This document shows positions 4,125 through 59,718 of a stretch of 64,000 nucleotides of DNA, one piece after another. How positions within the stretch are numbered: the first letter of the stretch is position 1; every line of letters begins with the position of its first letter. Source of the DNA: Octopus vulgaris (Eukaryota); assembly GCA_951406725.2 (NCBI GenBank), contig OX597821.1, positions 682,001-746,000 of the forward strand, written 5' to 3'. The notes below the pieces were generated by a model. That model was not told the origin of the DNA. It was given only the letters and a program-made list of their open reading frames with translations, and made no database searches. The translations under genes were made by a program, and so were the position numbers.

Positions 4125-4345
4125 TTGTACCTGCCCATTCTGGTGGCACACAAAAGTACCCCTTACACTCTTGGAGTGGTTGGTGTTAGGAAGGGCATCC
4201 AGCTGTAGAAATCATGCCAAATCAGACTGGGGTCTGGTGCAGCGCCTCAGTTTACCAGTTCTGGTTGAACCGTCCAACCCATGCCAGCATGACCAATGGA
4301 TGTTAAATCATGATGATGATGATTATGATGATGATGATTATGATA
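4125..4345 (+). mobile_element. SINE-like family A copy
   Basis: Core plus (GAT)n tail. Confidence 0.75.
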
Positions 4346-13974: not shown

Positions 13975-14141
13975 CTCTCTCTCTCTCTCTCTATCAATCT
14001 ATCTACATCTATCTGTCTATATCTATCTCTCTGTATGTATCTGTCTGTATCTGTCTGTATCTATCTGTCTATCTATATCTTTCTGTACCTATCTATCTAT
14101 CTATCTATCGATCTATCTATCTATCTATATATCTCTCTCTG

Positions 14142-14200
<59 letters not shown>

Positions 14201-14215
14201 ATCTCTCTCTCTCTG

Positions 14216-14252
<37 letters not shown>

Positions 14253-14293
14253 GTCTGTCTGTCTGTCTGTCTCTCTGTATCTATCTATCTATA

Positions 14294-14350
<57 letters not shown>

Positions 14351-14359
14351 CTCTCTCTG

Positions 14360-14415
<56 letters not shown>

Positions 14416-14465
14416 AATCTATCTATCTATCTATATCTCTCTCTCTGTATCTATCTATCTATCTA

Positions 14466-14496
<31 letters not shown>

Positions 14497-14497
14497 G

Positions 14498-14550
<53 letters not shown>

Positions 14551-14685
14551 GTCTGTCTGTCTGTCTGTCTCTCTGTATCTATCTATCTATATATCTATCT
14601 ATCTATCAATCTATCTATCAATCAATCTATCTAGCAATCTCATTATTTATCTATCTATCTATCTATCTATCTATCCTATCTATCT
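13975..14685. repeat. Long (TATC)n/(TGTC)n microsatellite
   Basis: Directly visible; no Tx1 insertion in this tract. Confidence 0.95.
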
Positions 14686-14816
14686 CCAATGGGCTTTATA
14701 CAAATGTTGGCAACAAAATTCATGCACAAGGCATTGGTTAGGCTGGAGCAGTAGCAGAAGATGCTCAAATTACTGTTCTACAGAACTGCAATGGCAAACA
14801 TGTGGTTGCAAAGCAA

Positions 14817-14862
<46 letters not shown>

Positions 14863-15954: not shown

Positions 15955-15994
15955 TTAATGTGATCCTCTTGGAAATATTGGGACATATTTTATA

Positions 15995-16414
15995 GGTGCA
16001 AGAGTGGCTGTGTGGTAAGTAGCTTGCTTACGAACCACTTGGTTCTGGGTTCAGTCCCACTGCGTGGCACCTTGGGCAAGTGTCTTCTACTATAGCCTCG
16101 GGCCGACCAAAGCCTTGTGAGTGGATTTGGTAGATGGAAACTGAAAGAAGCCTGTCGTATATATATGTATATATGTGTATATATATGTATGTGTGTGTGT
16201 ATATGTTTGTGTGTCTATGTTTGTTCCCCCAACATCACTTGACAACCGATGTTGGTGTATTTATGTTCCTGTAACTTAGTGGTTCGGTAAAAGAAACCAA
16301 TAGAATAAGTATTAGGCTTATAAAGAATAAGTCCTGGGGTCGATCTGCTCCACTAAAGGCAGTGCTCCAACATGGCCACAGTGAAATGACTGAAACAAGT
16401 AAAAGAGTAAAAGA
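15995..16414 (+). mobile_element. SINE family B, full length
   Basis: A and B boxes, internal (TA/TG) microsatellite, gtaaaaga-type tail repeats. Confidence 0.85.
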
Positions 16415-16716: not shown

Positions 16717-16915
16717 GGTAGCAAGCTGGCAGAATCATAACCTAATCAGACAAAATGCTTAGTGGTATTTCATCTGTCTCTATGTCCTGAATTCAAATTT
16801 TGCCTTTCATCCTTTGGGGTTGATAAAATAGCTACCAGTTGAGTACTGGAATAGATATAATTAACTTACCCCATCACCTGAAAACGCTGGCCTTGTGCTA
16901 AAATTTGAACCCAAT
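16717..16915 (+). mobile_element. SINE family C copy
   Basis: Similar to the copies at 5642-6375. Confidence 0.7.
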
Positions 16916-17499: not shown

Positions 17500-17780
17500 G
17501 ACAGACTTTTAGCAATATTCTATGCTTGAGAAGACATGTCAGGCTAAGAGGAATCATAGTGGTGGCCAGTGTTGGGGACACATGAGAGTTACCCATGCCA
17601 GTGACATGCAAAAGGCACCAGATACACTCTGTGGAGTGGTTGGTATCAGGAAGGGCATCTGACCATAGAAACCAAGCCAACGTCATACTGGAGCCTGGTG
17701 CAGCTCTCCTGTTTACCGGTAGCAATCAAACTGTCTAACCCATGCCAACATGAAAGATGGATAGTAAATGATGATATTGA
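17500..17780 (+). mobile_element. SINE-like family A (diverged)
   Basis: ggagtggttggtatcaggaagggcatc...aacccatgccaacatg. Confidence 0.7.
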
Positions 17781-17906
17781 TGTAGGTAGTGGTGAATTTA
17801 ATTATGAAAATGATCACAGAATGATGACATTAAATATGAATGTACTGTATCATGTGATATCTGTTTTATCACACGGTCAGTATAGATCAGATATTAATTG
17901 TACGAA

Positions 17907-18110
17907 GGCTGCGAGCTGGCAGAATTGTTATCATGTTGGGTGAAATGCTTAAAGGCAGTTCTTCCAGTCCTTTACATCTTGAGCTTAAATCCCTGTTTAG
18001 GGTACTTTAGCCTTTCATCTCTTCAGGGTCAATAAAAGTATCAATGAAATGCAGGTTGTGGGGGTGACAGAAACGACATGCACCTTCTCTCAAAATTGCT
18101 GACCTTGAAT
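17907..18110 (+). mobile_element. SINE family C (diverged)
   Basis: ggctgcgagctggcagaattgtta...gcctttcatctcttcagggtcaataaa. Confidence 0.6.
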
Positions 18111-20249: not shown

Positions 20250-20881
20250 GGCAGATACCAGTGTCACACAAATTGGCACCTGTGCTGCTGGCACGTAAAA
20301 GCACCCTAGTGTCGCGCAAATGACATCCATGTCAGTGGCAAGTAAAAGCACCCATTAGACTCTCAGGGTGGTTGGCGTTAAGGAGGGCAAGCAACCACAG
20401 AAAACCATGCCAAATCAGACTGGAGTCTGGTGCAGCGTTCCTGCATATGCCAGCTCCTGTCAAACTGTCCAACCCATGCCAGCATGGACAACAGACATTA
20501 AATAATGAGGATGATGATGATAATGATGCAGGTGAGGATGTGTGGTAAGAAGCTTCTTTCCTAACCACATGGTTCTAGATTCAAGTTCCACTACATGGCA
20601 CCTTGGTAAAGTGTCTTTTACTATAGCCCCAGGCTGACCGAAACCTTGTGAGTGGATTTGGTAGATGGAAATTGAAAGAAGCCCATCATATATATATCTG
20701 TGTGTGTGTGTGTGTCCCCTCCATTGCTTGACAATTGGTGTTGGTGTGTTTACATTCCTGTAACTTGGTGGTTCAGCAAAAGAGACCAATAGAACAAATA
20801 CCAGGCTTTAAAAAAGGTATTAGGGTTGATTCATCTGGCTATAAAAAGAATTCTTCAGTGTAGTGCCCCAGCATGGCCGCT
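20250..20881 (+). mobile_element. Family A copy (~20250-20527) followed directly by a family B copy (~20528-20881)
   Basis: Both diagnostic cores present in tandem. Confidence 0.7.
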
Positions 20882-24567: not shown

Positions 24568-24965
24568 TTTACTCTTTTACTCTTTTACTTGCTTCAGTCA
24601 TTTGACTGTGGCCATGCTGGAGCACCACCTTTAGTCGAGCAAATTAACCCCAGGACTTCTTCTTTGTAAGCCTAGTACTTATTCTATCTGTCTTTTTTGC
24701 CGAACTGCTAAGTTACAGGGATGTAAACACACCAGCATCGGTTCTCAAGCAATGCTAGGGGGACAAACACAGACACACAAACATATGCACACACACATAC
24801 ATACATATATACACACATATATACATATATACGATGGGCTTCTTTCAGTTTCTATCTACCAAAACCACTCACAAGGCTTTGGTCGACCCAAGGTGCCACA
24901 CAGTGAGACTGAACCTGGAACTATGTAGTTCATAAGCAAGTTACCACACAGCCACTCCTGCGCCT
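24568..24965 (-). mobile_element. SINE family B
   Basis: Head and tail present on the minus strand. Confidence 0.85.
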
Positions 24966-25330
24966 ATGTCTGTGTATGCATGTCTACATGTATATGTCCA
25001 TGTATATTAGACATATACAGAGTGATGCACACATGCTGTATGTATGTATGTGTATGTGTATGTATGTACATGTGTGTGTATATGTATGTGTATGTATGTA
25101 CATGTGTGTGTGTATATGTATATGTATGTGTATGTATGTACAGGTGTGTGTGTATATGTATTTATATGCGTATGTATGTACATGTGTGTATGTATGTGTG
25201 TATCGATGCATGTGTGTGCATGTATGTCTGTGTGTGTCCATCTTCGTACATCTGTGTGTGTGTGTGTATCTATACGTCTGTGTATGCATATTTACATATG
25301 TGTGTATATGTGTATGTGTATGTGTATATT

Positions 25331-31872: not shown

Positions 31873-32248
<376 letters not shown>

Positions 32249-33275
32249 TGTTTCTTTATTAGCCACACAGGGCTGAACACAGAGGGGACAAATTACAAAG
32301 TAGAGCTTTTCTTTTTGGGGAGAAAAAAAATAAAATAAAAATAAAAAATAAAAGGGGGGGTAGGTTTTAGATCAAAAGGGATTGTAAAAAGAGAGAGAAA
32401 GAATAACGATCAATAGGGATCATGTATCACAGAAATGTCATGATGTAAAGTGTAAAGGGGGAGGCAGATAAGGTTTATCCGTGGAAAGAAGAGCCAACAG
32501 AAAAGACCACTGTAACCTCGGTCAATAATGTCACATGTTAACACATTTATTTGCAAGTAAGTAACTCAGTTTAAAATTTTTCTGGGTTCATAGGATTATG
32601 CTCAAGGTGGCTTCGTCATTCATACGTGACATCCTTGCTACATTCACCCATCTTTTTTTTAAACATTCCCTAGACAAAACTTGTCTCTCTAATCTCACTT
32701 TCCTTTTCAAGTGATACTTGAAGAAGTTGATGAGAGATTGACCAGAGAGGAAAGTGTTTGTCTCCAATCCTTTCAGACGCGTCCACCAGATACATTCTTT
32801 CGCCATAGCCACAAGGATGATGAAAATAGCTCTTCCTTCCCGTTTGAAGGAAGGAGGTGTGACAATATTGATGATAGATTTGGCTGATAAACTGACTCGT
32901 CCCACACATGACAGCAGTTGTTCAACATAAGCGCACAGGTCAGAAATGGTTGGACACTGCACGAGTGCGTGCAGAATGGTTTCATCGCTCTGACCACATC
33001 TTAGGCAGGTTGGTCCTGTGTTTCTTGAGCCATGTCTGTAGAGCTTATCCTGAACAGGTAGCACTTCTCGGTAGCACTGCCAGACCAGGGATCTCTGGAA
33101 GTTGTCCATAGGTCCTGAAAGTCATCTTGAACATACGGGTCAGGTATTCCTCGTCGCCGCCCAGGTTTTCCCCGAGATCGTTGTCATACCTCCCCTCCAC
33201 TAAACCTCTATAGAATGCTTTGGTTGTGTTGTAGTTGCTTAAGGTTGACCTGGGACGGCATAGTTGCTTGAGAGC
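32249..33275 (-). mobile_element. Tx1/L1-clade non-LTR retrotransposon, 5'-truncated copy T1
   Basis: ORF2 C-terminus with zinc knuckle CLRC...ETILHALVQC (ORF 32588-33109), then 3' UTR ending aataaagaaaca; both ends abut (GATA)n. Confidence 0.9.
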
Positions 33276-33479
33276 ATAGATAGATAGATAGATAGGTAGG
33301 TAGACAGAAAGATAGATAGAGAGAGAGATAGGTAGATAAATAGATAGATACAGAGAGAGAGATATAGGTAAATAGATAGATAAATAAATAGATAGATAGA
33401 TAAATAGACAGATAGATAGATAGGTACACAAATATGCAGAGACAGAGTTGTGTTCACACACATTGTTATAAAATATTTC

Positions 33480-33670
33480 ATAATCATCACCATCATTTCA
33501 TGCATGAATATTATGCCGACGCGAGTCAGATGGTTTGACAGGATCCATTGAACTGAATGGCTGCACTGAGCTGCTAAGTCTTCTTTGGTATAGTTTCTAT
33601 GGCTGGATGCCTTTCTTAATACCAAACACTTTACAGAGTGTACTGAATGTCTTTTACGTGACAGCAGCAC
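33480..33670 (-). mobile_element. SINE-like family A (diverged)
   Basis: tttctatggctggatgcctttcttaataccaaacactt. Confidence 0.6.
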
Positions 33671-33731
33671 TAGTGAGATTGCCAAGAAGCTTGTAAGACA
33701 AAGAAAAATATTCCTCAACAGAGCAGGCATG

Positions 33732-33818
<87 letters not shown>

Positions 33819-33965
33819 CAATGAAATAACGCTTGTAGTAAAATCTGAAATTTTGATCATGCAACTTAGAAGTTTGGCAAAAGATAACCATTATAGTAAG
33901 TACTGAACTTAAAAGAAAAAAAAAACCTGGGGTCCACTAATTTATATATATATATATATATATAT

Positions 33966-34242
33966 GTATCATGGACTTGCCTGTCATTAGACGACATATG
34001 AGGGTTCAGCAATTTCTGGCCAAACAACCACACGGATGACCTGTTTATAGTGATCAAATGTTTGTGTTCACATAGGCTCACTCCCTCCATCAGATTGATA
34101 TTACCTGTACAGGTGCAATGGGTGCCACATGTCAGATGATGAAATGATTGCAGAGCAATGTGAAATGAAGTGCTTTGCTCAAGAACACAATGATCTTGTA
34201 ATTGTGAGTGCAACACCCCAACCACTAAGCCATGTGCCTTCA
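33966..34242 (-). mobile_element. SINE family E
   Basis: Reverse complement gaaggcacatggcttagtggtt...gttcttgagcaaagcacttcatttcacattgctc. Confidence 0.7.
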
Positions 34243-34271
34243 CCAATATATATATATAAATATATATACAC

Positions 34272-34629
34272 ACACCAATGCTAGAACAGGACGACACTGC
34301 ATAGTGCCAAAGATCCCAGCAATGCCATCACGCTTCAGGACCAGCTTCTGCAACACCCTGGGTTTCAAGGGACTTTTTAATATTCTCCCAAAGAGTCTGA
34401 GGAACTTGCAAAAGTAGATGTAGCGGTTTTTAAATCAAAGCTGCACATCTTCCTGTCAAGAGTCCCAGATGAAACTACCTCACGGCAAGAGGTGCAAATG
34501 AGAGTAGCTATATCAAACTCCATTCTTCACCAAGTGCCACATATCAGACGAGGTTCGTCGTAATAACAGTGTAGCACAAAACGGCGGTGCATCAGCATGG
34601 CCGCAGCTCTGAGCTGAAACTAGAAAAAC
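34272..34629 (+). mobile_element. CR1/L2-group LINE 3' end (ORF2 C-terminus plus 3' UTR)
   Basis: TNARTGRHCIVPKIP...GLFNILPKSLRNL..FKSKL..FLSRVPD resembles the CR1-group C-terminal FN.LP..FK..LD motif; followed by the tail ggcggtgc..cagcatggccgcagctctgagctgaaac. Confidence 0.7.
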
Positions 34630-34819
34630 TATATATATATACGTTTAAATATTTGTTGTGCAAGATTTTTTATGTGAAGTCGTGTGTTGAAACAGATATT
34701 GTTATATTTCGGAATGGTCATATTGCCAGTTTAGCCAATATATATATATATATACATGTAAATATTGTCAGTTGTTCATATATCTGAAAAAGAAGCACCC
34801 TTAGAACAGTAATATACAT

Positions 34820-34915
34820 TTTAGGGAGTTAATTGTTATGGCCAGTCATAGAGTGACCATTGATTTTGTACCAGTAAAGTGCTTAGCAGTATAGTCAACT
34901 TGTCAGACTCAAATG
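34820..34915 (-). mobile_element. Penelope-like fragment with decayed hammerhead (same family as 52901-53103)
   Basis: Reverse complement gagu-CUGACAA-guu...ac-AAAAU-caaug-GUC-acuc. Confidence 0.6.
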
Positions 34916-34960
34916 GCTCAGATACACACATACACAAATATATATATACATAAATACATG

Positions 34961-35258
34961 CAGTTGGACCTCAGTTTGTTAACACCTCTCATCACAAGCA
35001 AATTGGTTTATGAACAACTTTTTGAAAATAAAGCGTCCTGGGTGAGGAACAGTGCCTTGAGTAACAAATGATGAGTGACAAGTTGGGAGTATCATTGAGA
35101 AAAAGTCAGTTGTTGTCTAGCTTTTACTCAGTCTACATTTCTGCAAGAAATTTGCTGTGCATTCTCTGGAATTTTCTATAGGGTTTCAGTTTCAGTTTAC
35201 TAACATTTTTGGGTGACAAAAATAGCCTTCAGGAATGAATTAAATTCATAAACCAGGA
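34961..35258. mobile_element. Tigger/pogo-like MITE (decayed)
   Basis: Starts cagttggacctcagtttg..caaattggtttatgaac and ends gaattaaattcataaaccagg, as in CAGT-terminal Tc1/mariner MITEs. Confidence 0.45.
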
Positions 35259-35339
35259 TGCTGAACCTTTCAGGTGAGATATCAAAGGATGGAGATGCTT
35301 GGCACCTTCCTATACTCAAGAAGACCTGCGCTCTGCAGT

Positions 35340-35842
35340 AGAAGTGTTCAGAGTGGTTCCTCTGGTGATGAAAAGCACTTGTGGTGGCACAACGTAAAAG
35401 CACCCATATGTAAAAAGCTCCCAGCACACTCTGTAAAGTGGTTGATGTTAGGAATGGCATCCAGCCATAGAAACCATGTCAAATCACACTGGAGTCAGGT
35501 GCAGCTCCCCAGCTCTGATCAAACCACCCAACCCATGCGAGCATGGACAATAAATGATAATAATGATGATGATTATGATATATATATATATATATATATA
35601 TATGCACGTAAAAAACACCATTTGAGTGTGGCCGTTGCTAGTACCGCCTGACTGGCCCTCGTGCCGGTGGCATGTAAAAGCACCCACTACACTCAGAGTG
35701 GTTGGCGTTAGAAAGGGCATCCAGCTGTAGAAACTCTGCCAGACCAAGACTGGAGCCTGATGCAGCCATCTGGTTGCCAGCCCTCAGTCAAAACCCTCCA
35801 AACCATGCTAGCATGGAAAACGGATGTTAAACAAAGATGATA
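35340..35842 (+). mobile_element. Two tandem SINE-like family A copies
   Basis: Cores near 35440 and 35700, each with a (GAT)n tail. Confidence 0.8.
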
Positions 35843-35927
35843 TATATATATATATATATACATATATATACATACATGTATACACATACATACACATATA
35901 TACATACATACACATATATACATACAT

Positions 35928-35983
<56 letters not shown>

Positions 35984-35989
35984 ACACAC

Positions 35990-36243
35990 TTTCCCCATTC
36001 ACTACACCACCAGTGCGCTTTCGCACAGCTCGCTTAAGTTCTTCATGCTGCATAATTTGCTCTCTCAAAAGGGTCGACCCCCTCCTTAACCTGCTTCCTC
36101 CATCTGTGACGATGTCAGGCATTGCTCTCCCAGTCAATCTCCTGCATATCACAGGCCTATAATGAGGACTTGACAAAGTCCTTAAATTGCAGTCTTGGTT
36201 TCTGCTGGGGTCTCCTTCCATTCACAAGTTTCCCATATAGCAT
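35990..36243 (-). mobile_element. RTE/BovB-type LINE 3' ORF fragment
   Basis: Reverse complement translates to LYGKLVNGRRPQQKPRLQFKDFVK...[17 protein letters not shown]...FE, the RTE C-terminal motif. Confidence 0.8.
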
Positions 36244-36246
36244 TTG

Positions 36247-36278
<32 letters not shown>

Positions 36279-36483
36279 CAAACTGGGAGAAGAATGTAAA
36301 ACATTTAGAAGACGATATAAAAAACATGGACGGGTCATTCGAAGCCTTCAATCTTCAGTCAAGAACCAGATCATCCTTGCAATACATACACACATACATA
36401 CATATATATATACACACATATATGTACATACACAAGTATATATATATATACATATATACACACACACACAAACACACATATAT

Positions 36484-36514
<31 letters not shown>

Positions 36515-36627
36515 TACACATATCCATTCCTTATAGTGATGATATATGCATATATCTACCTCAGAATTCCTGCAGTTATCTATGTATCTTACTACAATTC
36601 TTGTCTATAACCACATTGCACCAATAT

Positions 36628-36687
<60 letters not shown>

Positions 36688-37190
36688 GCTCAACAACTAT
36701 ATTTATCTGACACAATAGTATATTTCAAAAACTAAGAGAAATAAGATAGATAGAAAGGAAAAAGGAAACGAACCAGATGAATTTTTTTAAAAAACAAAGT
36801 TTATGTAACAAAGAAAAAGAATGACAAAAACCAAAAAATATGACTTTGGGAAAGCAGCAAAAAGAAAAAAAAAAGATATGATTGGCTATAACTGAGAAAT
36901 GTGATTGAAAATACAAGTTGACAAGAAGTACATACTAAATAACACACACACACACACAGATGCTCAAGCATACATATGTGTGTGTATCTTGTCAGATACA
37001 AAGGCATATATATATATATATATGCATACAAATGTGTATATGTGTATGTGTGTGTGTGAGAAAAGCTATAGAAAAAATTGCAAATTTGCAAAAAGTAATA
37101 CTCCTTTTTTTTTGTAGGTGAAGGTGTCTGTACATATATATGTGTACATATGTATATACATGTTGTGTTTGCACTGTGTTTATGTGTGTG

Positions 37191-37234
<44 letters not shown>

Positions 37235-37328
37235 TAGATATATATACTATTTGTGTTTATATATATATATGCTATATATATATACACACACACACAATTT
37301 ATATACTATATAGATCCATACATATATA

Positions 37329-37380
<52 letters not shown>

Positions 37381-37894
37381 CTTATACATCACGCATATAC
37401 ATCTTATATCACAAACACACATCACAACTATGAATGTAACAGAAAGTGGGTATGTTTTTCCACTTTTCTTTCTTCTTCTTCTTCATCTTCTTCATCTTCT
37501 TCAGTTCTTTGTTTGAGTCAATAAGCAAAGTATTCTAAAGATAAGGAAATGCCCAGAAGTAGCATCAATAACCGTTTATTCTTTTAAGAATAAAAATAAA
37601 AATAGCAATAAATAAATAAAGGATAATAATACTTGAGAGAGAGAAAAAAATTTATTGCTTGATAAGATGAAAATTTATTCCACTAAAAGGAATTGACAAG
37701 ACTCAGTTATTATAGGCATGGTATGTTGATGTGTGTGTATAGGTCTATTGTATATATGTGTGGGTGTGTGTGTGAGTGTGTGTATGTGTGTGCATATATA
37801 TATATAAGAGAAGGAGAGACAGATATGGAAGTCCAGTAAAGGTCATTTGTACTACACCTTTTCACTTAACCATAATGAATGTATTATATATAAA

Positions 37895-37936
<42 letters not shown>

Positions 37937-39593
37937 TATATTTATTATAGCATAATTATATATTGTATATATATATATATATATATATATGCATACATAT
38001 ATTTAGCATATATATCTAATACACATACAAATACACACACGTATGTATATATACACAGATGCATGTATATATACATATACACATATCTATATATAATTTA
38101 TATGGCTTAATTTATCTATACACTCGCATATACATAATAATAATAATCTTAATTGCTAAACATTAAACTAGTTAATAGACTCTACAGTTATATAGTTAAT
38201 GAAACGTATGTATTTTTTGCTGTATTTTTCTGTGTGTATTTTTTGCTGTATTTTTCTGTGTGTATTTTTTGCTGTATTTTTTTGTTACTTGGATGGTTCT
38301 TTATAGGTGTGTACCTCGGTCTGTCTTTAGATATATTTTTATCTAAGCACACACACACACACACAATATTCATGTACATGCAGACACACATACAAACATA
38401 TATATACATACATACACACACATGCACATACATATATACATATACACACACACATATACACACATATATATGCACACAAACACACATATACACACTCACA
38501 TACATATATACGCACATACATATATGTATATATATATACATACACATGCACATGAATATATACATATACAAACACACATATATACACACACACACATATA
38601 CACACACACATATACACATGCATACATATGCACACACGCATATATACATACACACATTCATGCACACACATACACACATACAAACACATTAATATACATC
38701 TTATATAGATATTGACACACACACACACACATATGTATATAAACACATAAACACAGTGATGTGTGTATATTTTTTATATCATATATCCTTTTTATCTGCT
38801 AATTTATTCTGTTTAATGTCTCATTTTAAAGTCTGTTTTGAAGACTTGTTCTATATTTTATATTACTTTTATTCATTATTTATAGTCCGTCTCTAACTTG
38901 ATTCTTTAGTATTTTTATCATTTTTCCACAGATTATTTGTGTGTGGTGGTGGTGGTGGTGGTGTGAGTTGTTTGTGGAGAAAACATAGTGAAACTGTGGT
39001 GGTGAGGGAGACGATGATATTGGCCATGACAGCAGGGGTGGGGGTTGTGTATGTGTATACAATAGACACTCTGTGTGTGTGTGTGTGTGTGTGTGATGGG
39101 AGAGTGCTGTTGTTGTGACGGGTGAGGCTCGTCCGGAAACGGAGTTGAAGAAAATATCATTGTAATAGCAAAGAGACGCGTGTGCGTGCGTGTGTGTGTG
39201 TGTGGAGGTGGAATTGTAAAAGTTGTGTCCAAGAAGTGCAATTCTACCATTTTCTTGCAAGAGCTGGCTAAAAAGACATTAAAAAAAAAAGAATTCCTTT
39301 TGATAATAAAAACAACAACAACAACGTTAACAAAAATAAAAAATGACCCACAAAAACAAAATAAAAAATGCTCACAAAAAAAATGTTGGAAAAAGGAAAC
39401 AACAACAGAGATAGGACAGAAATCAAAAGACAGAATAAAGGAGGAGAAAAAATAAATTAAAAACATAAAAATAAATACATTGAATAATTAATAAGGCATT
39501 TTATTTTATTTCTTTTCTTGTTTTTTTAAATTTATTTTTTATTACTATTTTTTAGTTAGATAATTTTTTGCTTTAGTTTATATATACATATAT

Positions 39594-39634
<41 letters not shown>

Positions 39635-39839
39635 CATACATATAAATAAAACCATTCTTTGAAACTGATGTTTTTCTAACATTTTGTGTATGTAAATGTG
39701 TTGTATGCACACGCACAAACACACATATAAATCTGATATTTGTTAGGCACACTCATACATTCTTAAAGAGATATACATACATGCATCTGCACATTTTACA
39801 CATACACACACACATATACATAAATACGTACATAGATAT

Positions 39840-39882
<43 letters not shown>

Positions 39883-40631
39883 GTTATACACAAACATACA
39901 AGTATACATATATGGACACATACATATATACAAATAACACACACATGTAGAAAGAGACGAAGAGAGAGTGAGAGAGAGTGAGAGAGAGAGAGAGAGTGAG
40001 AGAGAGGGCAGTCAAACACGTTAATTTAATATTCCCCATTATAAAGAAATGCTACTGGCAGGGCTGTGTGTGTATGGCAGTGGGGATACGGGTAGGAGGG
40101 GAACAGTATTAGTGTCTATTTAATTCTTCATAAATTCGTTTATTAGGGAGATAATTCAATAAAATACGAAAAGGGAAATGTGAGATTTCAATAAAGCCTT
40201 CTATATACACACACATACATGCAAACACACACATACAAGCAAACACATAAAACCCAAAGAGACAATTTTCCATTTAAATAGTCTAGCTTGAGATGTTTTA
40301 TTTTACTTCGTTTATCATCATTATACATGTAATATAATAATAATAGCTATTATTATTATTATGTTGGTATTTTGAAAGATATTTAAGGAAATATTCCTAA
40401 ACTGATGAGAAGAAATCCAAGATGGAGAGAAGATGCTGGGTTTTAAAAAATGGATTTGAGTTATGTCCCTTGGACTTGCGACAAGAAGCGGTGACAACTA
40501 AAATTAATTGTGCTATTCGAGAATGTTCCGTGATAGGCGAGCAGCGGTGTTTTGTGTGACAAGTGTTCTTTCATACTAGAATGGGGACGATGGAGTTATG
40601 CTTTGTTTACAGTAGCGTATGTGTGTTTGTG

Positions 40632-40689
<58 letters not shown>

Positions 40690-40711
40690 CACACGTACAC
40701 ACACGCAAACA

Positions 40712-40744
<33 letters not shown>

Positions 40745-40860
40745 CCTTTTGATCGAAACCTTAAATTTATTTTCCTTTTTCTTTTCCACCCTCGAAAAGA
40801 AAAGCTCTACATTTGTATTTGTCCCCTCTGTATTCAGCCCTGTGTGGCTAATAAAAGAAA
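40745..40860 (+). mobile_element. Tx1-type element copy T2 (3' UTR end only)
   Basis: Matches the last ~115 nt of T1, T3 and T4; 5' end abuts (TATC)n at 40712-40744. Confidence 0.85.
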
Positions 40861-41413
40861 GGACTCGCCTGAAAGGATTAGAGACAAGCACTTTCCTCTC
40901 TGGTCAATCTCTCATCAACTTCTTCAAGTATCACTTGAAGAGGAAAGTGAGAGTAGAGAGGCAAGTTTTGTCTAGTGAATGTTTTAAAAAAAGATGGGTA
41001 AATGTAGCAAGGATGGCACGTATGAATGACGAAGCCACCTTGACTATGATTCTATGAACTGTAAAAATTAATACAGAGAGTTGCTTATTTGCAAAAAAAA
41101 AAAAAAAAGAAATATAACATGTGACTTCATTGACCGAGGTTACCGTGGTCTTTTCCGTAGGCTTTTCTTTCCACGGGTAAACCTCACCTGTCCTCCCCTT
41201 TACACTTCATATTGACATTTCTGTGATGACGGTCCCTATTGATCAATCCCCCCCTTTCTTTTAATTTTACCCCCCCCTTTTTTGTCCTCTTTCTTTCCTT
41301 TTACAATCCCTGTTGATCGAAAACCAAACCCCCTTTTTTTACCCCCAAAAGAAAAGCTCTACCTTGTAATTTGTCCTGTCTGTGTGCAGCCCTGTGTGGC
41401 TATTAAAGAAACA
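40861..41413 (+). mobile_element. Tx1-type element copy T3 (ORF2 end plus 3' UTR)
   Basis: TRLKGLETSTFLSGQSLINFFKYHLKRKVR..., close to T1; followed by (TATC)n. Confidence 0.9.
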
Positions 41414-41452
41414 TATCTATCTATCTATCTATCTATCTACCTACCTACCGAC

Positions 41453-43882
41453 CTACCGTGGCTCTCGGCAAGAGAAGCGGAGTGTTGTGAAAGTCCCATC
41501 ACAGCCGCTGACGTGCGGGGTGCGATGGCGGGCTGCGAGGGATAAGTCGCCTGGATTGGATGGTTTACCCTACGAGCTGTATTGTCAAATGCCAGACTTG
41601 TTTGGCGACCTCTTGGCATCAGTCTACTGCAACTGGCAACAAAACGGGAGAATCCCCGGTTTCGTGAGCCGAGGTGCGGTGACGTTGCTGAAGAAAGACC
41701 CAAACAAGGGGAATTTTATAGATAATTTCAGGCCCATCACTCTGCTCAACGCAGATTTGAAAATTTTGGCCAAAGTAATAGCCGAGAGGTTGGCGCTTGT
41801 CATTGATAAACTGGTCGACACGGCGCAAACATGCGTCGTGCCGGGCAGAACCATAAATGACAACCTCCATCTGATGCGCTACATTGTGGACAGGGTAGTT
41901 AAGGATCCTGGCATGGGTGGGGCGCTGATCAATTTGGATCAGTCTAAAGCCTTCGATAGGGTCGACCATCGGTACTTGGCGGCCGTCCTCAGGGCGGCTG
42001 GCTTCGGTCCCGTCTTCCGCGGTTGGATCGCTGCCTTGTATAGCGGCATTCGATTGGTGATTCGGGTGAGCGGCCACCTGTCGAAACCGTTTGACATCAC
42101 GCGTTCGGTCTGTCAGGGGTGTCTCCTGTCGGCGCTTCTGTATGTATTGACTCTCGAGCCGCTACTGCGGAAGCTGGTGACACTGAGAGGCATCCCACAG
42201 GAACTGGGTTGCGGGATGAGCGTGTCGGCATATGTGGACGATGCCACCGTCATAGTGTCGAGCGAAAAACACATCCAGATGATAGGCGAGACACTAAGAA
42301 AATACGAAACGGTGACGGGAGCAAAGATTAACCCGGAAAAGTCAGTGGGTTTGCTACTCAGCAGCTGGAGAAGCAAGCCCATGCCGTCCAACTGCGGCTC
42401 AGTAGTGGGACGCTGGACGGACGGACCGGTTAAATTGCTCGGGGTCTGGTTCAGTCCGGACCTCCAAATGGATAAGAACTGGGACGAGATCACGAGTAGA
42501 GTGGTCGCTCTCAGCTAAACATGGACCAAGAGAAAGCTGTCTCTAAAAGGTCGGGCGGAGGTGGCGAACGCGTACATCGCATCCGTCATCGATTACTGCC
42601 TGACCGTCGTGCCTTGTCCCGACGCCACCATCACCAAACTTGAACGCATACTCTTCCGCTTCCTGTGGAAGGGTGACGTTCCAATGGTGAGGAGGTCCAT
42701 TTGCTGTCAATATCCGTTGAATGGAGGGCTAGGCATGCCGTGGTTGATGATGCGCAGGCATGCGCTGAGACTGCGACATCTCTGGAACTTCATCGATGAC
42801 GGTGAACAGGTGTGGGCACTGTTTGTGAGGCGCGCCTTCCCGCAGCTCGTCTCACTGATCGAACTGCAAACGTGGATCAAGAAGAGACCAAAACTGGGCA
42901 ATTGGCACCGAGAGTGTCGCCAAGCTGTACAGCAGATCTGCCGACCAGGGTCAAACTTGTGCAACTTACAAACCACATAAGCGTTCTATAGAGGACTAGT
43001 GTAGGGGAGATCCGACGACACACTCGGGGCAAACCTGGGCATCGACGAGAAATTCCTAACCCGCCTTTTCAGGACGATGTTCGGGCCGGGGCCTATGGAT
43101 AACTTCCAGAGATCACTGGCTTGGCAATGCTATCGAGACGCACTACCTGTTCAAGAGAAGAGCTGCGGGCACGGTTCGAAAACCATCACCGGACCGACCT
43201 GCCCGAGATGCGATCAGAGCGACGAAACCGTTCTGCATGCACTCGTGCAGTGTCCAGATATTTCAAAGCTGTGGACCTTCGTCGAACAGCTGTTGTCGAG
43301 TGTAGGACGGGCCTGCTTATCGGCCAAGTCTATCGTGAATAACGGTTTTCGTTACGCTGATGGCTATGGCAAAAGAATGTGTGTGGTGGACGCATTTGAA
43401 AGGACTGCAAACAAACACCTTCCTCTCTGGTCAGTCTCTCGTCAACTTTTTCAAGTACCACTTGAAAAGGAGGATGAGAATAGAGAGGAAGGCTTTGTCG
43501 AACAAATGTTTTAATAAAAAGTGGGTAAAAGTGGCAAAAATGGTCAATGTGAAAGACGACACTATTTTAAGCATAAATCTGTAACCAAAAGAGACAACGA
43601 GAGGTAAGGCGACTTACTCATGTGTTCTTTTTTGAACTGTCTGAGGTGACCTTGGTCTTTTTTGTAGGTTTTTTCTTTCCAGGGCTACACCTAAACTGTG
43701 AACTTTATTTATATATATATGTATTATATTTTTATACACCACACAACCCACAGATCCCTATTGATCGAACGTTTTTTTTCTCTTTGTATGTCCCACCCAT
43801 CCCACCTCGAAAAGAAAAACTCTACATTGTATTTCGTCCATTTTTATTCTGTGTTTAGCCCTGTGTGGCCATAATAAAAAGT
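41453..43882 (+). mobile_element. Tx1/L1-clade non-LTR retrotransposon copy T4, 5'-truncated, RT plus zinc knuckle, disrupted
   Basis: KSPGLDGLP, FRPITLLNAD, LDQSKAFDRV, QGC.LS, AYVDD, GAKINPEKS, LSLKGR, GGLGMP, CPRC...ETVLHALVQC. Stops and frameshifts near 41540, 42516, 42978 and 43340; endonuclease missing; (TATC)n on both sides. Confidence 0.95.
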
Positions 43883-44564
43883 TATCTATCTATCTATCTA
43901 TCTATCTATGTCATCTGTTTTATTTGTTGGTCTGCCTTGAAAAAAATCTACCCAAATGTTTATTTTAAATTAGTTACTTAATCTATCAGTAACTTTTTGC
44001 TGAAATGTTAGGTTACAGGAGGCCCTAAATAAATCAACACTGATTGTCAGTCAATAGTGTGGATAAAACAAGCACAAAGACACGTATGCCTGCACACACA
44101 CAAGCACATATCTGTCTCTCTTTCTAGTTACATATCTTTTTTTTTCTATACGTGTGTGCGTATGACTGTTGCCCAGTCAGTATCCATCTTCCAAATTCCC
44201 TCACAAAGTAAATATGTCCCTCCGTTCATTTCATTGTCATCCTCCTACCTTCATTTTCTATGGACTGGAAAGGTCATCGCATTCTTGAGTCGCCTCCCAT
44301 TGGAGATTGCTACTCCCAAAGACTAGATGCTTACGTCTCTCAATTGGATTTGGTTCCTATGGCTGGATGCCCTTCCTGACATCAGCCACTTCACAGAATG
44401 TACTTGCTACTTTTCTCACAGTATTAATGCTGGAGAAGTCAAAGTTAAACAGACCAAGGTGGGACCCAGTTTGGAAGATTTCATAACCCTTCTTTTCACT
44501 TCTCCTTTGGCCAGCCATTTTACAGCATGCACAATATTTTATTATTATTATGGCTGGGTTAAAA

Positions 44565-45291: not shown

Positions 45292-45650
45292 ACTGGCAGG
45301 AACGTTAGCATGCCAGGTGAAATGCTTAGTGGTATTTCGTCTGTTTTTACATTCTGATTTCAAATTCCACCGAGGTCGAGTTTGCCCTTCATCCTTTCGA
45401 GATTGATAAATTAAGTACCAGGGAAGTACTGGGGTTGATCTAATCAACTGGCCTCTTTCGCCAAAACTTTTGGGCCTTGTGCCACCTATTTACAGCTGTA
45501 AATAGGGTCACCTATTTATAGCTGAGTGGACTGGAGCAACATGAAACAAAGTAGTTTACTCAAGAACACAAAGCACTACCAGTCTGGGAATTGAAACCAT
45601 GATCTTGCAATTGGTTGTGCAATACCCTAACCATTAGGTTGCATGCCTTC
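45292..45650. mobile_element. SINE family C (+, ~45292-45483) next to SINE family E (-, ~45510-45650)
   Basis: Diagnostic motifs of both families. Confidence 0.7.
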
Positions 45651-46091: not shown

Positions 46092-46464
46092 ATTTATCAA
46101 AATGAACAGACATTATCGACAGTGTAACTGCAACATCTGACCATGTGTGTATCTATATGTGAATATATAGCTACACACAGCTGAAGAGTTCCTGACTTTA
46201 AGGGTTTCATGAAGGGCCCGGCTGGAGGCCCAACATTCCGAGTTCTATTACAGGGCTCAGAAAAACTGAGGGACCACTGCAATTAGAGTGTGAATCTGAG
46301 AAGAGAATTTGTTGACTAAAATCATAATTAATTGATCAATTAATTATGAAACCCTTAAAGTCAGGAACTCTTCAGCTGTGTGTATCTATATATCCACATA
46401 TATATACACACATGGTCAGATGTTGCAGTGACACTGTCGATAATGTCTGTTCATTTTGATAAAT
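46092..46464. repeat. Long inverted repeat (arms ~46092-46210 and ~46346-46464) with a conserved spacer
   Basis: Arms are near-identical reverse complements; spacer homologous to 54722-54920; perfect 28-bp palindrome at 46322-46349. Confidence 0.9.
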
Positions 46465-48654: not shown

Positions 48655-48961
48655 GCATGTGAAAAAACATTTGAGCGAGATCGTTGCCAGTGCCACTGGA
48701 CTGGCTCCTGTGCAGGTGGTGTATAAAAAGCACCATTTGAGCGTGGCCATTGCCAGTACTGCCTGACTGGTCCTCGTGCCGGTGGCATGTAAAAGCTCCC
48801 ACTACACTCTCGGAGTGGTTGGCATTAGGAAGGGCATCCAGCTGTAGAAACTCTGCCAGATCAAGATTGGAGCCTGGTGCATCTGTCTGGTTTGCCAGAT
48901 CTCAGTCAAATTATCCAACCCATACTAGCATGGAAAGCGGACGTTAAACGATGATGATGAT
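48655..48961 (+). mobile_element. SINE-like family A copy
   Basis: Subrepeats, core and (GAT)n tail. Confidence 0.85.
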
Positions 48962-49544
48962 GTATATATATATATATATGTATGTGTATATATATATATA
49001 TAATCGCTGTAACAAACTATCAGCACAACCATGTCTGTACATGCTTGCTTTGTAACAACATGGTTTCAGGTTCAGTCCCACTATACAGCACCTTGGACAA
49101 GTGACTTTTATTTTAGTCCTGGGCCGATAAATACCTTGTGGATGAATATGGTTGACATAAATTGTATGGAAGCCCATTGTATATGTGTGTGTGTGTGTGT
49201 GCGTAGTCAAAAAGAGGGCATACTAAAGTGACATGCAGCCAAAATCGGGCTCAGTGGAGGGGTTTCACCCTCCACTCAATTACATAGGGTACTAAACTCA
49301 GGATAATCTAGAATGTGGAATATGAGCCAAATAATAGAAGAAGTAATAAGCAGAAAACAGGTGCCAGTAAGGCGATGCAGGTAACAATGAGGCTCGAATG
49401 GAGCTTTTTACGTGCCACCAGCATGGAGGCGAGTTTGTTGCTCTGGCAACGATCACGCTCGGATGGTACTCTTAGCACTCCACTAGCATGGATGCCAGTC
49501 ATCGAATTTGATTTCGATATATACATATATATATGTGCTGAGAG

Positions 49545-49620: not shown

Positions 49621-50012
49621 TCTCTACTCTTTTACTTGTTTCAGTCATTTGACTGTGGCCATGCTGGAGCACCACCTTTAGTCGAGCAAATCGACCCCAG
49701 AACTTATTCTTTGTAAGTCTAGTACTTATTCTATCGGTCTCTTTTACTGTACAGCTAAGTTACGGGGACATAAATACACCAACATCGGTTGTCAAGCGAT
49801 GTTGGGAGACAAACACAGACACACAAACATATATATATATTCATATATACAACGGGCTTCTTTCAGTTTCCGTCTACCAAATCCACTCACAAGGCTTTGG
49901 TCGGCCGAGGCTATAGTAGAATACACTTGCCCAAGGTGCCACGCAGTGGTACTGAACCGGGAACCATGTGGTTTGTAAGCAAGTTACTTACCACACAGCC
50001 ACTCCTATGCCT
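49621..50012 (-). mobile_element. SINE family B
   Basis: Full head to tail. Confidence 0.85.
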
Positions 50013-50735
50013 ATATATATGTATACACACACATACACATTCAGAATGTAATTTAAAGGAAAGTGATCACCAACTCTAGCATGGAAGGGCATCTGGCCAT
50101 ATAAAATACCACCACAAAAATAAGCCTTCATCAAACCCATGCAAGCATGAAAAAAATAGACATAGAACAGACAAATGAACATACACATGCATATAGATAC
50201 ACAGAAACAAATAGTCTACAAGGATATTTAAATTTGGTGTGTAGAGAAAATGGTTCTTTGAGCAGAAGGAAGAAAAAATTGGGAAATAAGATTGGAAAAG
50301 GAGAGAAAAGTAAAAAAAAAAAAAAAGTGTATTTGTTTATATTTTATTTTATTTTTGTAATGATTTCATGGTTGACAACACAAATGTATGACAGACGTGA
50401 CATCCTGGTGTAGTTAGAGAATTTCTTCTCAGGGATATAAGGATATGTGTATGTGCATAAATGTATGTACGTGTGTGTGGATGTGGATGTGTACGTGTGT
50501 GTGTGTAAGTATGTGTGCATGTGTGAATGTGCATATATGTATATGTGCATATGAATGTGTATATGTATGTGTGTGTATATGTATATATATATGTGTGTGT
50601 GTGTGTATATATATATATATGATTTATATAATTTGCGTTATACATAGAAGTATAAAACATACAAATAGTTTAGTTCTTTCAGCATACATTTATATGTACA
50701 TATATATCTATCTATATATATGTATAGATAGACAG

Positions 50736-51551: not shown

Positions 51552-51957
51552 TACTCTTTTACTTGTTTCAGTCATTTGACTACGGCCATGCTGGAGCACT
51601 GCCTTTAGTCGAGCAAATTGACCCCAGGACTTATACTTCGTAAGCCTAGTACTTATTCTATCGGTCTCTTTTGCTGATCCGCTAAGTTACGGGGACTTAA
51701 ACACACCAGCATCAGTTGTCAAGCGATGTTGGGAGGACAAACAGAGACACACAAACACATACATATATAGACACACACATATATACATATATACGACGGG
51801 CTTCTTTCAGTTTCCATCTACCAAATCCACTCTCAAGGCTTTGGTTGGCCTGAGGCTATAGTAGAAGACACTTGCGCGAGGTGTCACGCAATGGGACTGA
51901 ACACGGAACCATGTGGTTGGGAAGCAAGCTACTTACCACACAGCCACTCCTGCGCCT
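51552..51957 (-). mobile_element. SINE family B
   Basis: Full head to tail. Confidence 0.85.
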
Positions 51958-51972
51958 ATATATATATATATA

Positions 51973-52243: not shown

Positions 52244-52368
52244 TTTGTATGTTTTCCTGTCACCAACTTTTAATTCTTTTTCAAGTAAAGGAAATTTTTC
52301 TTTTTCATTCCAGAGGAATTTGAAAGCACAGAGCTATGATTTATTGATAAGAAATGGCAACAAACATA

Positions 52369-52551
52369 GGCATAGGAGTGGCTGTGTGGTAAGTAGCTTG
52401 CTTACCAACCACATGGTTCCGGGTTCAGTCCTACTGCATGATACCTTGGGCAAGTGTCTTCTACTATAGCCTTGGGTCGACCAAAGCCTTGTGAGTGGAT
52501 TTGGTTGAGGGAAACTGAAAGAAGCCCGTTGTATATTTGTGTGTGTGTGTG

Positions 52552-52596
<45 letters not shown>

Positions 52597-52806
52597 ATAT
52601 GTTTGTGTGTCTGTGTTTGTTCCCCAACATTGCTTGACAACTGATGCTGGTGTGTTTATGTCCCCGTAACTTAGCAGTTCGGCAAAAGAGACTGATGGAA
52701 TAAGTACTAGACTTACAAAGTATAAGTCCTGGGGTTGATTTGCTCCACTAAAGGCGGTGCTCCAGCATGGCCACAGTCAAATGACTGAAACAAGTAAAAG
52801 AGTAAG
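52369..52806 (+). mobile_element. SINE family B inserted in a duplicated segment
   Basis: Full length; the empty site is visible in the paralogous segment near 48566. Confidence 0.9.
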
Positions 52807-54944: not shown

Positions 54945-55650
54945 CACCTGTGTGGTACCACATAAAATCACCTGTACGAATCTGTATGATTTGTTGGTGT
55001 CAGGAAGAGCATCCAGCAGCCATAGAAACCATACCAAATCAGACTGGAGTCTGGTGTAGCTCTCCAGCTCTGGTCAAATCTTCACCCCACGCTAGTGATG
55101 GACAATGGATATTAAATGATGATGATGTTATATATACAGCTGAAATGCACAAGTATAGTTGTCCGTATATATATTTCACCTTCTTGTATTCCAAGGGTCT
55201 GTCCTAGTATAACTTCACCATTCTCTCTCTCTCTCTCTCCCCTCAACTGGGGTAACCATGTACTTCCTCTTTTGCAAGAGCACCCTTGGAGGAACTGTGT
55301 GGGCCAAAACGACCGGGAGGTAGATGCGTTACCGCAATGTAAATGGCGATGCCTGACGACGCCTGCCTCGTGGCTCCTGCACCAACAAAGCCACTACTTC
55401 TTTTAATACCACTCCCCCTCTCAATTCAGGGATGGTGGTCTTTGTCATGCAAGATGCTTGATGACCATGCTGGAGCCTGTCCTACATAAAAAGCACACTG
55501 TGCCCTGTGTAAAGTGGTTGGCATCAGGTTGTAGAAACCATGCCAAAGCTGAGAATAGAAATTGGTGTAATCTTTGGCTTTGCCACCTCCTGTCAAACTG
55601 TACAACCCATGCCAGCATGGAAAACGGACGTTAAATGATGATGATGATGA
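54945..55650 (+). mobile_element. Two diverged family A copies (~54945-55128, ~55450-55650)
   Basis: Cores and (GAT)n tails. Confidence 0.65.
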
Positions 55651-56095
55651 TATATATATATTTTAGGTCTGTGTCAGGTCATGTTAATCATTGCAAGCTG
55701 AACTTGCTGTAGGTTCAATTGTTCAATTGTCGAGTGAGTTCTTCAGTAAATGGGTTTTTTTCATATATTTGTGTGTATGTATGTATGTATGTATGTATGT
55801 ATGTATGTATGTATGTATAGTTATCTCTTTGCTCCTTGCCACACATTGTGTGTTTTTCTGTGAGTATTATTATCATCACATTTATATCCTTTTTCCAATA
55901 TGTGTATATGGGTGTGTATGTGTGTATTGTATGTGTTCATTGTATGTGTTTGTAAATTCTGTGTGTGTATGTTGTGTGTGTGTGTGTAATTGTTTTAAAA
56001 GATTCTTTCAAGCAAAACTTCAATTTAAAGTTATCTCTTTCAGAAAGCAATTAAATAATTGATAGTTGTTCTGGCGGCAGAGGTGGTGGTGGTGG

Positions 56096-56997: not shown

Positions 56998-57336
56998 CCC
57001 TTTTGATACCAACCTGCCTGAGACCACCCTGGGTTCTATGACGTAAACGTACTGTTTAAAAGTGGTCTAAATTATAGTCTTCCACGAAGATTTTATGCTA
57101 ATTTGTTGCAGACCTCGAGAAAGTTATTTTGCTAAATTCCTCATTATACTCTTTTACTTGTTTCAGTCATTTGACTGTGGCCATGCTGCAGCACTGCCAT
57201 TAGTCGAGCAAATCGACCTCAGGACTTATTCTTTTTAAGCCTAGTACTTATTCTTTCGGTCTTTTTTGCCAAACCTTTAAGTTACGGGGATGTAAACACA
57301 CCAACATCGGTTGTTAAGCGATGTTGGGGGGGACAA

Positions 57337-57371
<35 letters not shown>

Positions 57372-57793
57372 CAATGGGCTTCTTTCAGTTTCCGTCTACC
57401 AAATCCACTCACAAGGCTTTGGTTAGCCCAAGGCTATAGTAGAAGATACTTTGCCCAAGGTGCCATGCAGTGGGAGTGAATCCGGAACCATTTGGTTGGT
57501 AAGCAAGCTACTTACCACACAGCCACTCCTATGCCTAGATGAAGACAGGTGGTGTAGACAACAAACAACAGGCTTCTTTCAGTTACTGTCTACTAAGCCC
57601 AATCACAAGGATTTGGTTGGCCCGAGGCTATAGTAGAAGACACTTGCCTAAGGTGCTGCACAATGAGACTGAACCTGGTACCATGTGATCTGTAAGCTAG
57701 CTACTTACCACACAGATATTCCTGCGCCTATTATCTTAAAAATTGATTGAAACAAAGGCAGCATATATGGACAAGAATATGGTAACAAAAGGG
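56998..57793. mobile_element. piggyBac-type MITE with TTAA TSD, interrupted by SINE family B copies
   Basis: TTAA-CCCTTTTGATACCA...TGGTAACAAAAGGG-TTAA (13/14 TIR match); SINE B at ~57147-57536 and a partial copy at ~57571-57729, both on the minus strand. Confidence 0.8.
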
Positions 57794-57799
57794 TTAAAA

Positions 57800-58215
57800 G
57801 CATTTGTAATGGGTCTCCACACTCAGAGTTCAAACCTCACTGAGGTCAGCTTTGCCTTGTATCATTCCAAGGGTCAATAAAATAAACCAGCAGTAAATTT
57901 CTGGGGGTTGCTGTGTTGCTGCAATTTTGTGTTCTCCCCTTAATTGATGGCCTTGTACCAAAATGTGAAGTAATTAGTGTGGCAAACTGACAGAATCATA
58001 ACTGAGCCAGAGAAGATCCTTAGGGAATCCTTAGGGAATTCTAAGGGACATTTCTCTTGGCTCTTTACATTGTGAGTTCAAATGGTACAGAGGTCAGGTT
58101 TGCCTTCCGTTCTTTAAGGGTCACTTGAAGTACCAGTCATTTGTTGGGGTTGATGTAATCAACTTCACCCCTCTCTCACAAAACTCCTAACCCTGTACCT
58201 AGATTAGAAAGTATA
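57800..58215 (+). mobile_element. Two diverged SINE family C copies
   Basis: gagttcaaa...gaggtcag.tttgcctt present twice. Confidence 0.6.
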
Positions 58216-59212: not shown

Positions 59213-59578
59213 TTATTTTATTTGTTTCAGTCATTTGACTGCGGCCATGCTGGAGCACCACCTTTAGTCGAGTAAATCAACCCCAGGATTTATTCTTTGT
59301 AAGCCTATTACTTATTCTATTGCTCTCTCTTGCTGAACTGCTAAGTGACAGGAATGTAAACACACTGGCATTGGTTGTTAAGCGATGTTGGGGGGACAAA
59401 CACAGACACACAAACATATACACACACATACATATATGACGGGCTTCTTCCAGCTTCCGTCTACCAAATCCACTCACAAGGCTTTGGTCGGCTTGGCCAA
59501 AGTGCCACGCAGTGGGACTGAACCCGGAGCCATGTGGCTTGTAAGCAAGCTACTTACCACACAGCCATTCCTATGCCT
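59213..59578 (-). mobile_element. SINE family B
   Basis: Head to tail with a small internal deletion. Confidence 0.85.
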
Positions 59579-59718
59579 ATTTGTATATATGTATATATTT
59601 GTGTGTATATAGCCATGATATGAGATGGTTTGATGGTTTGAGTATTTTAAAATACTAGCACAGCCTATAACCCACTTGGTGTGACCAGAATATATTTCCT
59701 CTTCTTCTTCTTCTTCTT

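Follow-up and report, generated by a model that had tools for sequence, protein, structure and literature searches.

Copies of a Tx1-like retrotransposon at (TATC)n/(GATA)n microsatellites in Octopus vulgaris

Retrotransposons without long terminal repeats (non-LTR) insert by target-primed reverse transcription (TPRT), which is an established mechanism, and some of them, such as Waldo of the R1 clade, are found in microsatellites. In the Tx1 clade, Kibi inserts into TC and Koshi into TTC repeats, and eight crocodilian families insert into TTCC or TTTC, with target specificity accepted when >20% of the copies were flanked by one repeat (PMC4494074; this and the other papers are cited for the accessible parts of their text). 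Togen occurs in TG (PMC4640811). The microsatellite targets named in the accessible part of PMC3812793 are ACAY, AC, TC, TTC, and TAA; the two mentions of GATA there concern mutation rates, and the change of specificity for microsatellite targets is called poorly understood. Here, we describe four copies (T1–T4) of a Tx1-like non-LTR retrotransposon that touch (TATC)n/(GATA)n arrays in a 64,000-nt stretch of the Octopus vulgaris genome (GCA_951406725.2, contig OX597821.1, positions 682,001–746,000; hereafter, the window). We consider it probable, with reservations, that these segments are copies of a high-copy family with a preference for inserting into (TATC)n/(GATA)n microsatellites already present.

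The teleost Tx1 elements Kibi and Koshi share with the relatives of the octopus element an open reading frame 2 (ORF2) composed of an apurinic/apyrimidinic endonuclease-type (APE) domain, a reverse transcriptase (RT), and a zinc finger, and they share with the octopus copies a microsatellite insertion of fixed polarity; they differ in that the octopus unit is TATC and that a quick tree places the T4 RT outside the fish/turtle Tx1 group. The crocodilian families (Tx1-1_Crp and others), compared here by description only, likewise have a tetranucleotide target, (TTCC)n or (TTTC)n (PMC4494074). The targets of these families, Kibi, and Koshi are pure pyrimidine/purine, whereas TATC is mixed. Waldo (ACAY), Mino (AC), and Dong (TAA) are also microsatellite-targeting non-LTR elements, but they belong to other clades and use other units (PMC3812793), Mino being of the R1 clade (PMC3124438). 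Human L1 has a weak TTAAAA preference and a poly(A) tail (PMC3812793), unlike the T1–T4 family. In Octopus vulgaris itself, 80 L1-Tx1 families (56 Mb) have been reported, 13 of them recently active (PMC13282606, in whose accessible text the word “target” is absent); compared by description only, the T1–T4 family probably belongs to these families or is related to them.

The accessible parts of PMC8967140 and PMC9115989 give no Tx1 target, and those of PMC3124438 and PMC8869645 add nothing on GATA. A GATA/TATC-targeting Tx1 element was not found in our literature search, which Repbase and Dfam lay outside, and an entry there is quite possible. The initial annotation of the window, made from the sequence alone, had proposed a possibly new specificity; this stands with regard to the GATA unit in the literature searched, but not for a tetranucleotide target as such, given the crocodilian precedent (PMC4494074). 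The novelty is thus one of repeat unit and lineage; element and mechanism are of known kinds.

Four 5′-truncated copies and their junctions

Searches with blastn, nhmmer, and tblastn recovered four homologous segments of one non-LTR retrotransposon, at two loci on opposite strands, as initially annotated, and no further copies in the window (Table 1). All four are 5′-truncated, starting at four different element positions, and they have a common 3′ end, in which an invariant GCCCTGTGTGGC motif is followed by an A-rich stretch. A polyadenylation-like signal lies just before this end (AATAAA-like in T1, T2, and T4; ATTAAA in T3). Pairwise identities in local alignments, with gaps counted, were 76% for T1/T3, 67% for T1/T4, and 61% for T3/T4. 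The reading frame of T1 has one break near 33116, its aligned stretches being without stops, and the coding region of T4 contains stops and two frame breaks. Neither an endonuclease nor ORF1 was found in T4, and no endonuclease of the family was found in the window.

In T1, T3, and T4, the A-rich 3′ end passes directly into (TATC)n, in agreement with the initial annotation, and in T2, it is joined to T3 with no TATC between them. On the 5′ side, perfect TATC runs lie upstream of T1 and T2, and (TATC)6 with TACC variants lies upstream of T4. TATC thus stands on the sense strand at three of the four 3′ ends and three of the four 5′ ends; all four copies in the window touch it, and the fixed polarity claimed earlier was found at all six junctions. 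The tract that holds T2–T4 consists of (TA)n, CA-rich, and TATC segments, and the copies lie in the TATC segment only.

The boundaries needed some revision: that between T2 and T3 was moved to 40860/40861, and the start of T4, previously placed at about 41453, can lie anywhere in 41438–41453, where D-L-P codons can be read as TACC variants. The 13-mer with these codons recurs in the array downstream of T1, outside any copy. At the 5′ junction of T2, ATC is common to the element and the repeat; microhomology with the repeat was observed at two of the three 5′ junctions. All three 5′ truncation points that are not fused to another copy abut TATC, as had been stated; however, because the TATC before T4 is the TATC after T3, only two of these junctions are independent.

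The last part of ORF2 in T1, T3, and T4 contains a weak self-complementary stretch of ~90 nt (32679–32762, 40882–40973, and 43411–43498; blastn E 2e-4 to 5e-4). A hairpin in the 3′ untranslated region (UTR) was considered but found no support in folding, which gave z-scores of −0.81 to 1.48 across the four copies; an AGCC/GGCT stem motif is nonetheless conserved.

Table 1. Retrotransposon copies, adjoining (TATC)n arrays, and neighboring short repeats in the window
Feature	Position	Strand	Evidence
Compound (TATC)n array with TGTC/TACC/TATG variants, at T1 3′ end	32140..32248	−	
T1: end of ORF2 with zf-RVT, 3′ UTR	32249..33275	−	blastn; zf-RVT E 8e-7
151-nt compound (TATC)n array, preceding T1 5′ truncation	33276..33426	−	
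Family B copy, decayed, just upstream of T1 5′ array	33456..33674	−	nhmmer E 4e-14
(TATC)8 upstream of T2	40713..40744	+	
T2: 116-nt copy, 3′ UTR end only	40745..40860	+	
T3: last ~64 codons of ORF2, 3′ UTR	40861..41413	+	
(TATC)6 and TACC units between T3 and T4 (T3 3′ flank and T4 5′ flank)	41414..41446	+	
T4: longest copy; RT, zf-RVT, 3′ UTR	about 41447..43882	+	RVT_1 E 2e-29; zf-RVT E 1e-6; tblastn with P0001
(TATC)6 TAT at T4 3′ end	43883..43909	+	
Family A copy, SINE-like, decayed	43910..44328	−	nhmmer match 43944–44103, E 2e-7; pairwise score 162 (highest among 30 shuffles, 124)

Relatives of the octopus element

The proteins closest to T4 are P0001 (72% identity) and a protein of Argonauta hians (66%), the latter being the nearest named relative; a cuttlefish protein has 50% identity. 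The ESM Atlas returned unnamed RT clusters only. The T4 RT scored 177–198 bits against seven of eight fish Tx1-type proteins (the eighth, P0441, 32), a set gathered via P0104, which is itself a T4 match. Two of these references, BAC82605.1 and BAC82609.1 (“pol-like”), presumably come from the Kibi/Koshi/Keno deposits. Among solved structures, human L1 ORF2p was the best match of the T4 RT (93.6 bits, against 62.9 for R2), yet it reached about half the score of the fish proteins. P0003, a full-length relative, scored 322–393 bits against the fish proteins (P0441, 136) and 215 against human L1 ORF2p, which is its best solved match as well. In having RVT_1 with a C-terminal zf-RVT, L1 ORF2p as its best solved match, and a common 3′ end with variable 5′ truncation, the element conforms to the L1 group of non-LTR retrotransposons.

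A metagenome scan yielded at least 80 distant loci, with at most 42% identity. None of the 80 listed carried a TATC/GATA run of ≥16 nt, which is uninformative for loci so distant, many of whose contigs stop before the 3′ end. No loci of close relatives were found in viral contigs or, by protein, in genome contigs, and two pattern matches in genome contigs were dismissed as chance, being without an ORF2 match. We built a quick RT tree of 115 segments from T4, 54 of 443 proteins, and 60 of the 80 metagenomic loci, with those having stops or short cover excluded. T4, P0001, and the Argonauta protein were joined with a Shimodaira–Hasegawa-like approximate likelihood ratio test (SH-aLRT) support of 100, and their sister was a group containing the cuttlefish protein (99). 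The long-branched T4 lineage stood apart from the fish/turtle Tx1 group (100) in this tree, which is midpoint-rooted without an L1 anchor and weak in its deep branches.

The RT scores against fish Tx1-type proteins, about twice those against L1, agree with the Tx1 assignment. From these comparisons, the element appears to be Tx1-like and not a member of Kibi/Koshi; in the tree, it lies in a clade separate from the fish elements, and it has a TATC target, unlike the Kibi/Koshi lineage proper. Its description as an APE retrotransposon draws on its close relatives and not on the window, which holds no endonuclease. P0450 (59% to the T4 RT) keeps the APE motifs GDWN, SYLDR, and TDH (C-terminal half, E 0.004, below the Pfam cut-off), and P0003 (53%) has a full Exo_endo_phos (APE) domain, an RT, and a zinc finger. 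P0003–P0087, found in European Nucleotide Archive assemblies, are APE-RT proteins of ~1150 aa that constitute a large sister group, clustering with the cuttlefish protein.

Proposed insertion preference and its alternatives

To set the junctions against chance, we counted strand-positions outside the copies: of the 119,712 positions, 589 (0.0049) have 12 nt of perfect TATC repeat upstream. Beside any perfect 12-nt repeat of period 1–4, the repeat is TATC at 591 of 6,600 positions (0.09), or 0.008 for two junctions. The controls were three other dispersed families (A, B, and C) with 44 nhmmer matches (17, 18, and 9, respectively), some of which are halves of one copy. TATC was found at one of their 44 5′ ends, where an array splits the element, and at none of their 44 3′ ends; against this 5′ figure, Fisher's p was 0.003 for two of two 5′ junctions and 0.0002 for three of three. 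The TATC flanks are common to copies only 61–67% alike, which we count in favor of targeting, and no copy adjoins five of the TATC loci in the window, indicating that such arrays exist without the element. The initial annotation had described TA, CA, and GA tracts as far more abundant than TATC. By 12-mer density per orientation, this holds for TA (0.0185, against 0.0046 for TATC) but not for CA (0.0037) or GA (0.0020), although CA/TG runs outnumber TATC runs in the window (72 vs 26).

We consider it very unlikely that insertion is broad and that the 5′ ends were set against TATC afterwards, by deletion, by recombination between TATC tails and arrays, or by survival in repeat-rich DNA. The control families occupy the same DNA without such adjacency, the polarity is equal at all TATC junctions, and TA runs, four times commoner than TATC, carry no copy. 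Such passive accumulation or rearrangement would nevertheless fit the 5′ microhomology, which deletions can also leave, and TATC arrays in the window do originate within SINE-like repeats or at their ends; passive accumulation near CA repeats has been proposed for Drosophila Waldo-A/B (PMC3812793).

Beyond the window, parts of T4 were found in 20 public runs from ten studies and five organisms. In four runs of four organisms, 36,729, 28,976, 10,714, and 12,558 contigs were placed on 40721–43940; these numbers, in which a contig does not stand for an independent insertion, mark the family as high-copy in the four organisms. Following the 3′ motif at 40855, the majority continuation was GAAA-AT-(ATCT)n in 160 contigs of one run (X2) and 190 of another (X3), with agreement of 0.55 and 0.57. 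Upstream of 40861, 37 contigs of run X2 run on into ORF2 sequence, and the fusion of T2 to T3 is therefore not the usual state of the family.

The evidence gathered beyond the window relates only to 3′ ends, and this leaves some room for the reading that there is no targeting at all, TATC being a tail made by the element and the 5′ repeats arising from template jumps onto the tail of another RNA, from tandem co-integration (T2-T3-T4 in one event), or from chance. Jumps do seem to take place, judging from the fusion of T2 to T3, and the repeat 5′ of T4 is the one 3′ of T3. The earlier assertion that an upstream repeat cannot be an element tail was accordingly too strong, as a template jump could copy the tail of another RNA. 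We nevertheless judge this reading improbable. The array 5′ of T1 is compound and 151 nt long, and T1 and T2 would each require an aborted jump. A single event would need two subfamilies active together, as T3 and T4 are merely 61% alike, and the sole direct fusion seen is free of TATC.

A preference for pre-existing (TATC)n/(GATA)n arrays, which we favor, would work as follows. An endonuclease of the APE type, encoded at the beginning of ORF2, would nick the (GATA)n strand, and the freed 3′ end would prime reverse transcription at the A-rich 3′ end of the RNA. Synthesis would stop early, and the cDNA would join the upstream half of the array, aided by short microhomology. Each copy would leave TATC on both sides, so that new copies could settle next to older ones (T4 after T3, or T3 after T4); a template jump probably accounts for the joining of T2 to T3. 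We propose this scheme because TPRT is established and because specificity is determined by the endonuclease in TRAS1, SART1, R1Bm, and Tx1L, an endonuclease swap between TRAS1 and SART1 moving the insertion site (PMC1919474). The absence of TATC at the T2/T3 fusion is as expected, in this one case, if the RNA ends A-rich. We infer the family's endonuclease, the sequence that it would prefer, the succession of events, and the 5′ specificity across the genome.

Several points weigh against this preference. Targeting as initially proposed is partly supported, by 5′ TATC well above background and controls and by 3′ TATC beyond the window, but its basis is thinner than was implied, consisting of two loci in one window with two independent 5′ junctions, and the endonuclease of the T1–T4 family itself was not recovered. 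The modest agreement behind the 3′ motif, seen for two of the four runs, means that a share of the copies may end otherwise, and TATC at the 3′ end by itself suits a tail just as well. Among the 24 of 6,200 loose contig ends listed, with repeat zones skipped, there was no 5′ flank. A clean target-site duplication was not found. A 14-nt variant motif flanks T1 on either side and does not recur in the window; it was matched by 33 of 3,000 shuffles with its position fixed and by 283 of 3,000 overall, and the T1 5′ array has 28 nt in common with an unrelated array at 14 kb. We do not claim this motif as a duplication. If it were one, about 29 nt of extra TATC-type sequence would lie between T1 and the motif, pointing to a tail or to 3′ read-through.

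Such extra sequence, together with the TATC majority in the 3′ continuation, would suit an RNA that has UAUC repeats at its end, or continues into such repeats by read-through, and that pairs with nicked (GATA)n, the endonuclease being lax and the TATC preference real. Pairing between a 3′ repeat and the target has been proposed for RTE, the I factor, R1Bm, and R2Ol (PMC6007223). We consider tail-guided targeting unlikely, although it is compatible with endonuclease-based preference: T2 ends A-rich without TATC at its fusion to T3, the polyadenylation-like signals lie just before the end of each copy, and the tested APE elements with sequence specificity have an endonuclease that is itself specific (PMC1919474).

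More tentatively, and with doubts that exceed our confidence, an octopod Tx1 lineage may have evolved (GATA)n targeting independently of Kibi/Koshi, and no Tx1 microsatellite target before it would have been other than a pure pyrimidine tract. The lineage would have kept this targeting across subfamilies of 61–67% identity and in at least several related species, and would help to breed GATA arrays in these repeat-rich genomes by duplicating and extending its target. If confirmed, the preference would add a mixed-base target to those of the sequence-specific APE endonucleases and offer a natural comparison of GATA with TC, TTC, TTCC, and TTTC for the change of specificity. The high copy number in several related species also makes the question of endonuclease versus RNA pairing testable on empty and filled sites.

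Other repeats in the window

Both retrotransposon loci adjoin the ends of decayed short repeats (Table 1). At the T2–T4 locus, the inferred tail position of the family A copy falls on the TATC run, and the cluster therefore likely sits in a tract grown at the end of that element. Family A is a short interspersed element (SINE)-like repeat of ~400 nt with an internal CA/TA repeat; its sites include 1769–2153, 15992–16408, 20529–20881, 24579–24968, 49626–50015, 51553–51960, 52365–52803, 57148–57539, and 59213–59580. On the strand opposite to 49626–50015, A-box- and B-box-like motifs were seen by eye at the start; ARAGORN and Rfam gave no matches in the window. The compound (TATC)n array at 13973–14685 (713 nt) carries no Tx1 copy. 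Directly after it comes a family A copy's second half (14678–14828, E 1e-9), and the sequence upstream of the array bears a weak likeness to the first half, with a score within the shuffle range. This array may be a family A internal repeat that has grown into TATC. A further (TATC)n array of 232 nt (31874–32105) and the array of opposite polarity at the T1 3′ end stand head to head, with a gap of about 35 nt between them.

Family B is a short dispersed repeat ending in (ATG)n and TA repeats, with sites that include 915–1108, 1461–1700, 4134–4327, 17562–17788, 20321–20528, 35410–35866, 48725–48989, and 54954–55673. Family C (~190 nt) occurs at 5652–6357, 16726–16898, 17916–18103, 45293–45483, and 58033–58186, the first of these sites consisting of three tandem copies with (ATC)n and (ATT)n runs between them. 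Pfam gave no matches in the 89 scanned of 125 non-repetitive frames, the remaining 36 lying mostly in the copies or in short repeats. At 46092–46464, there is an inverted pair with 119-nt arms (46092–46210 and 46346–46464) that are 97% alike.

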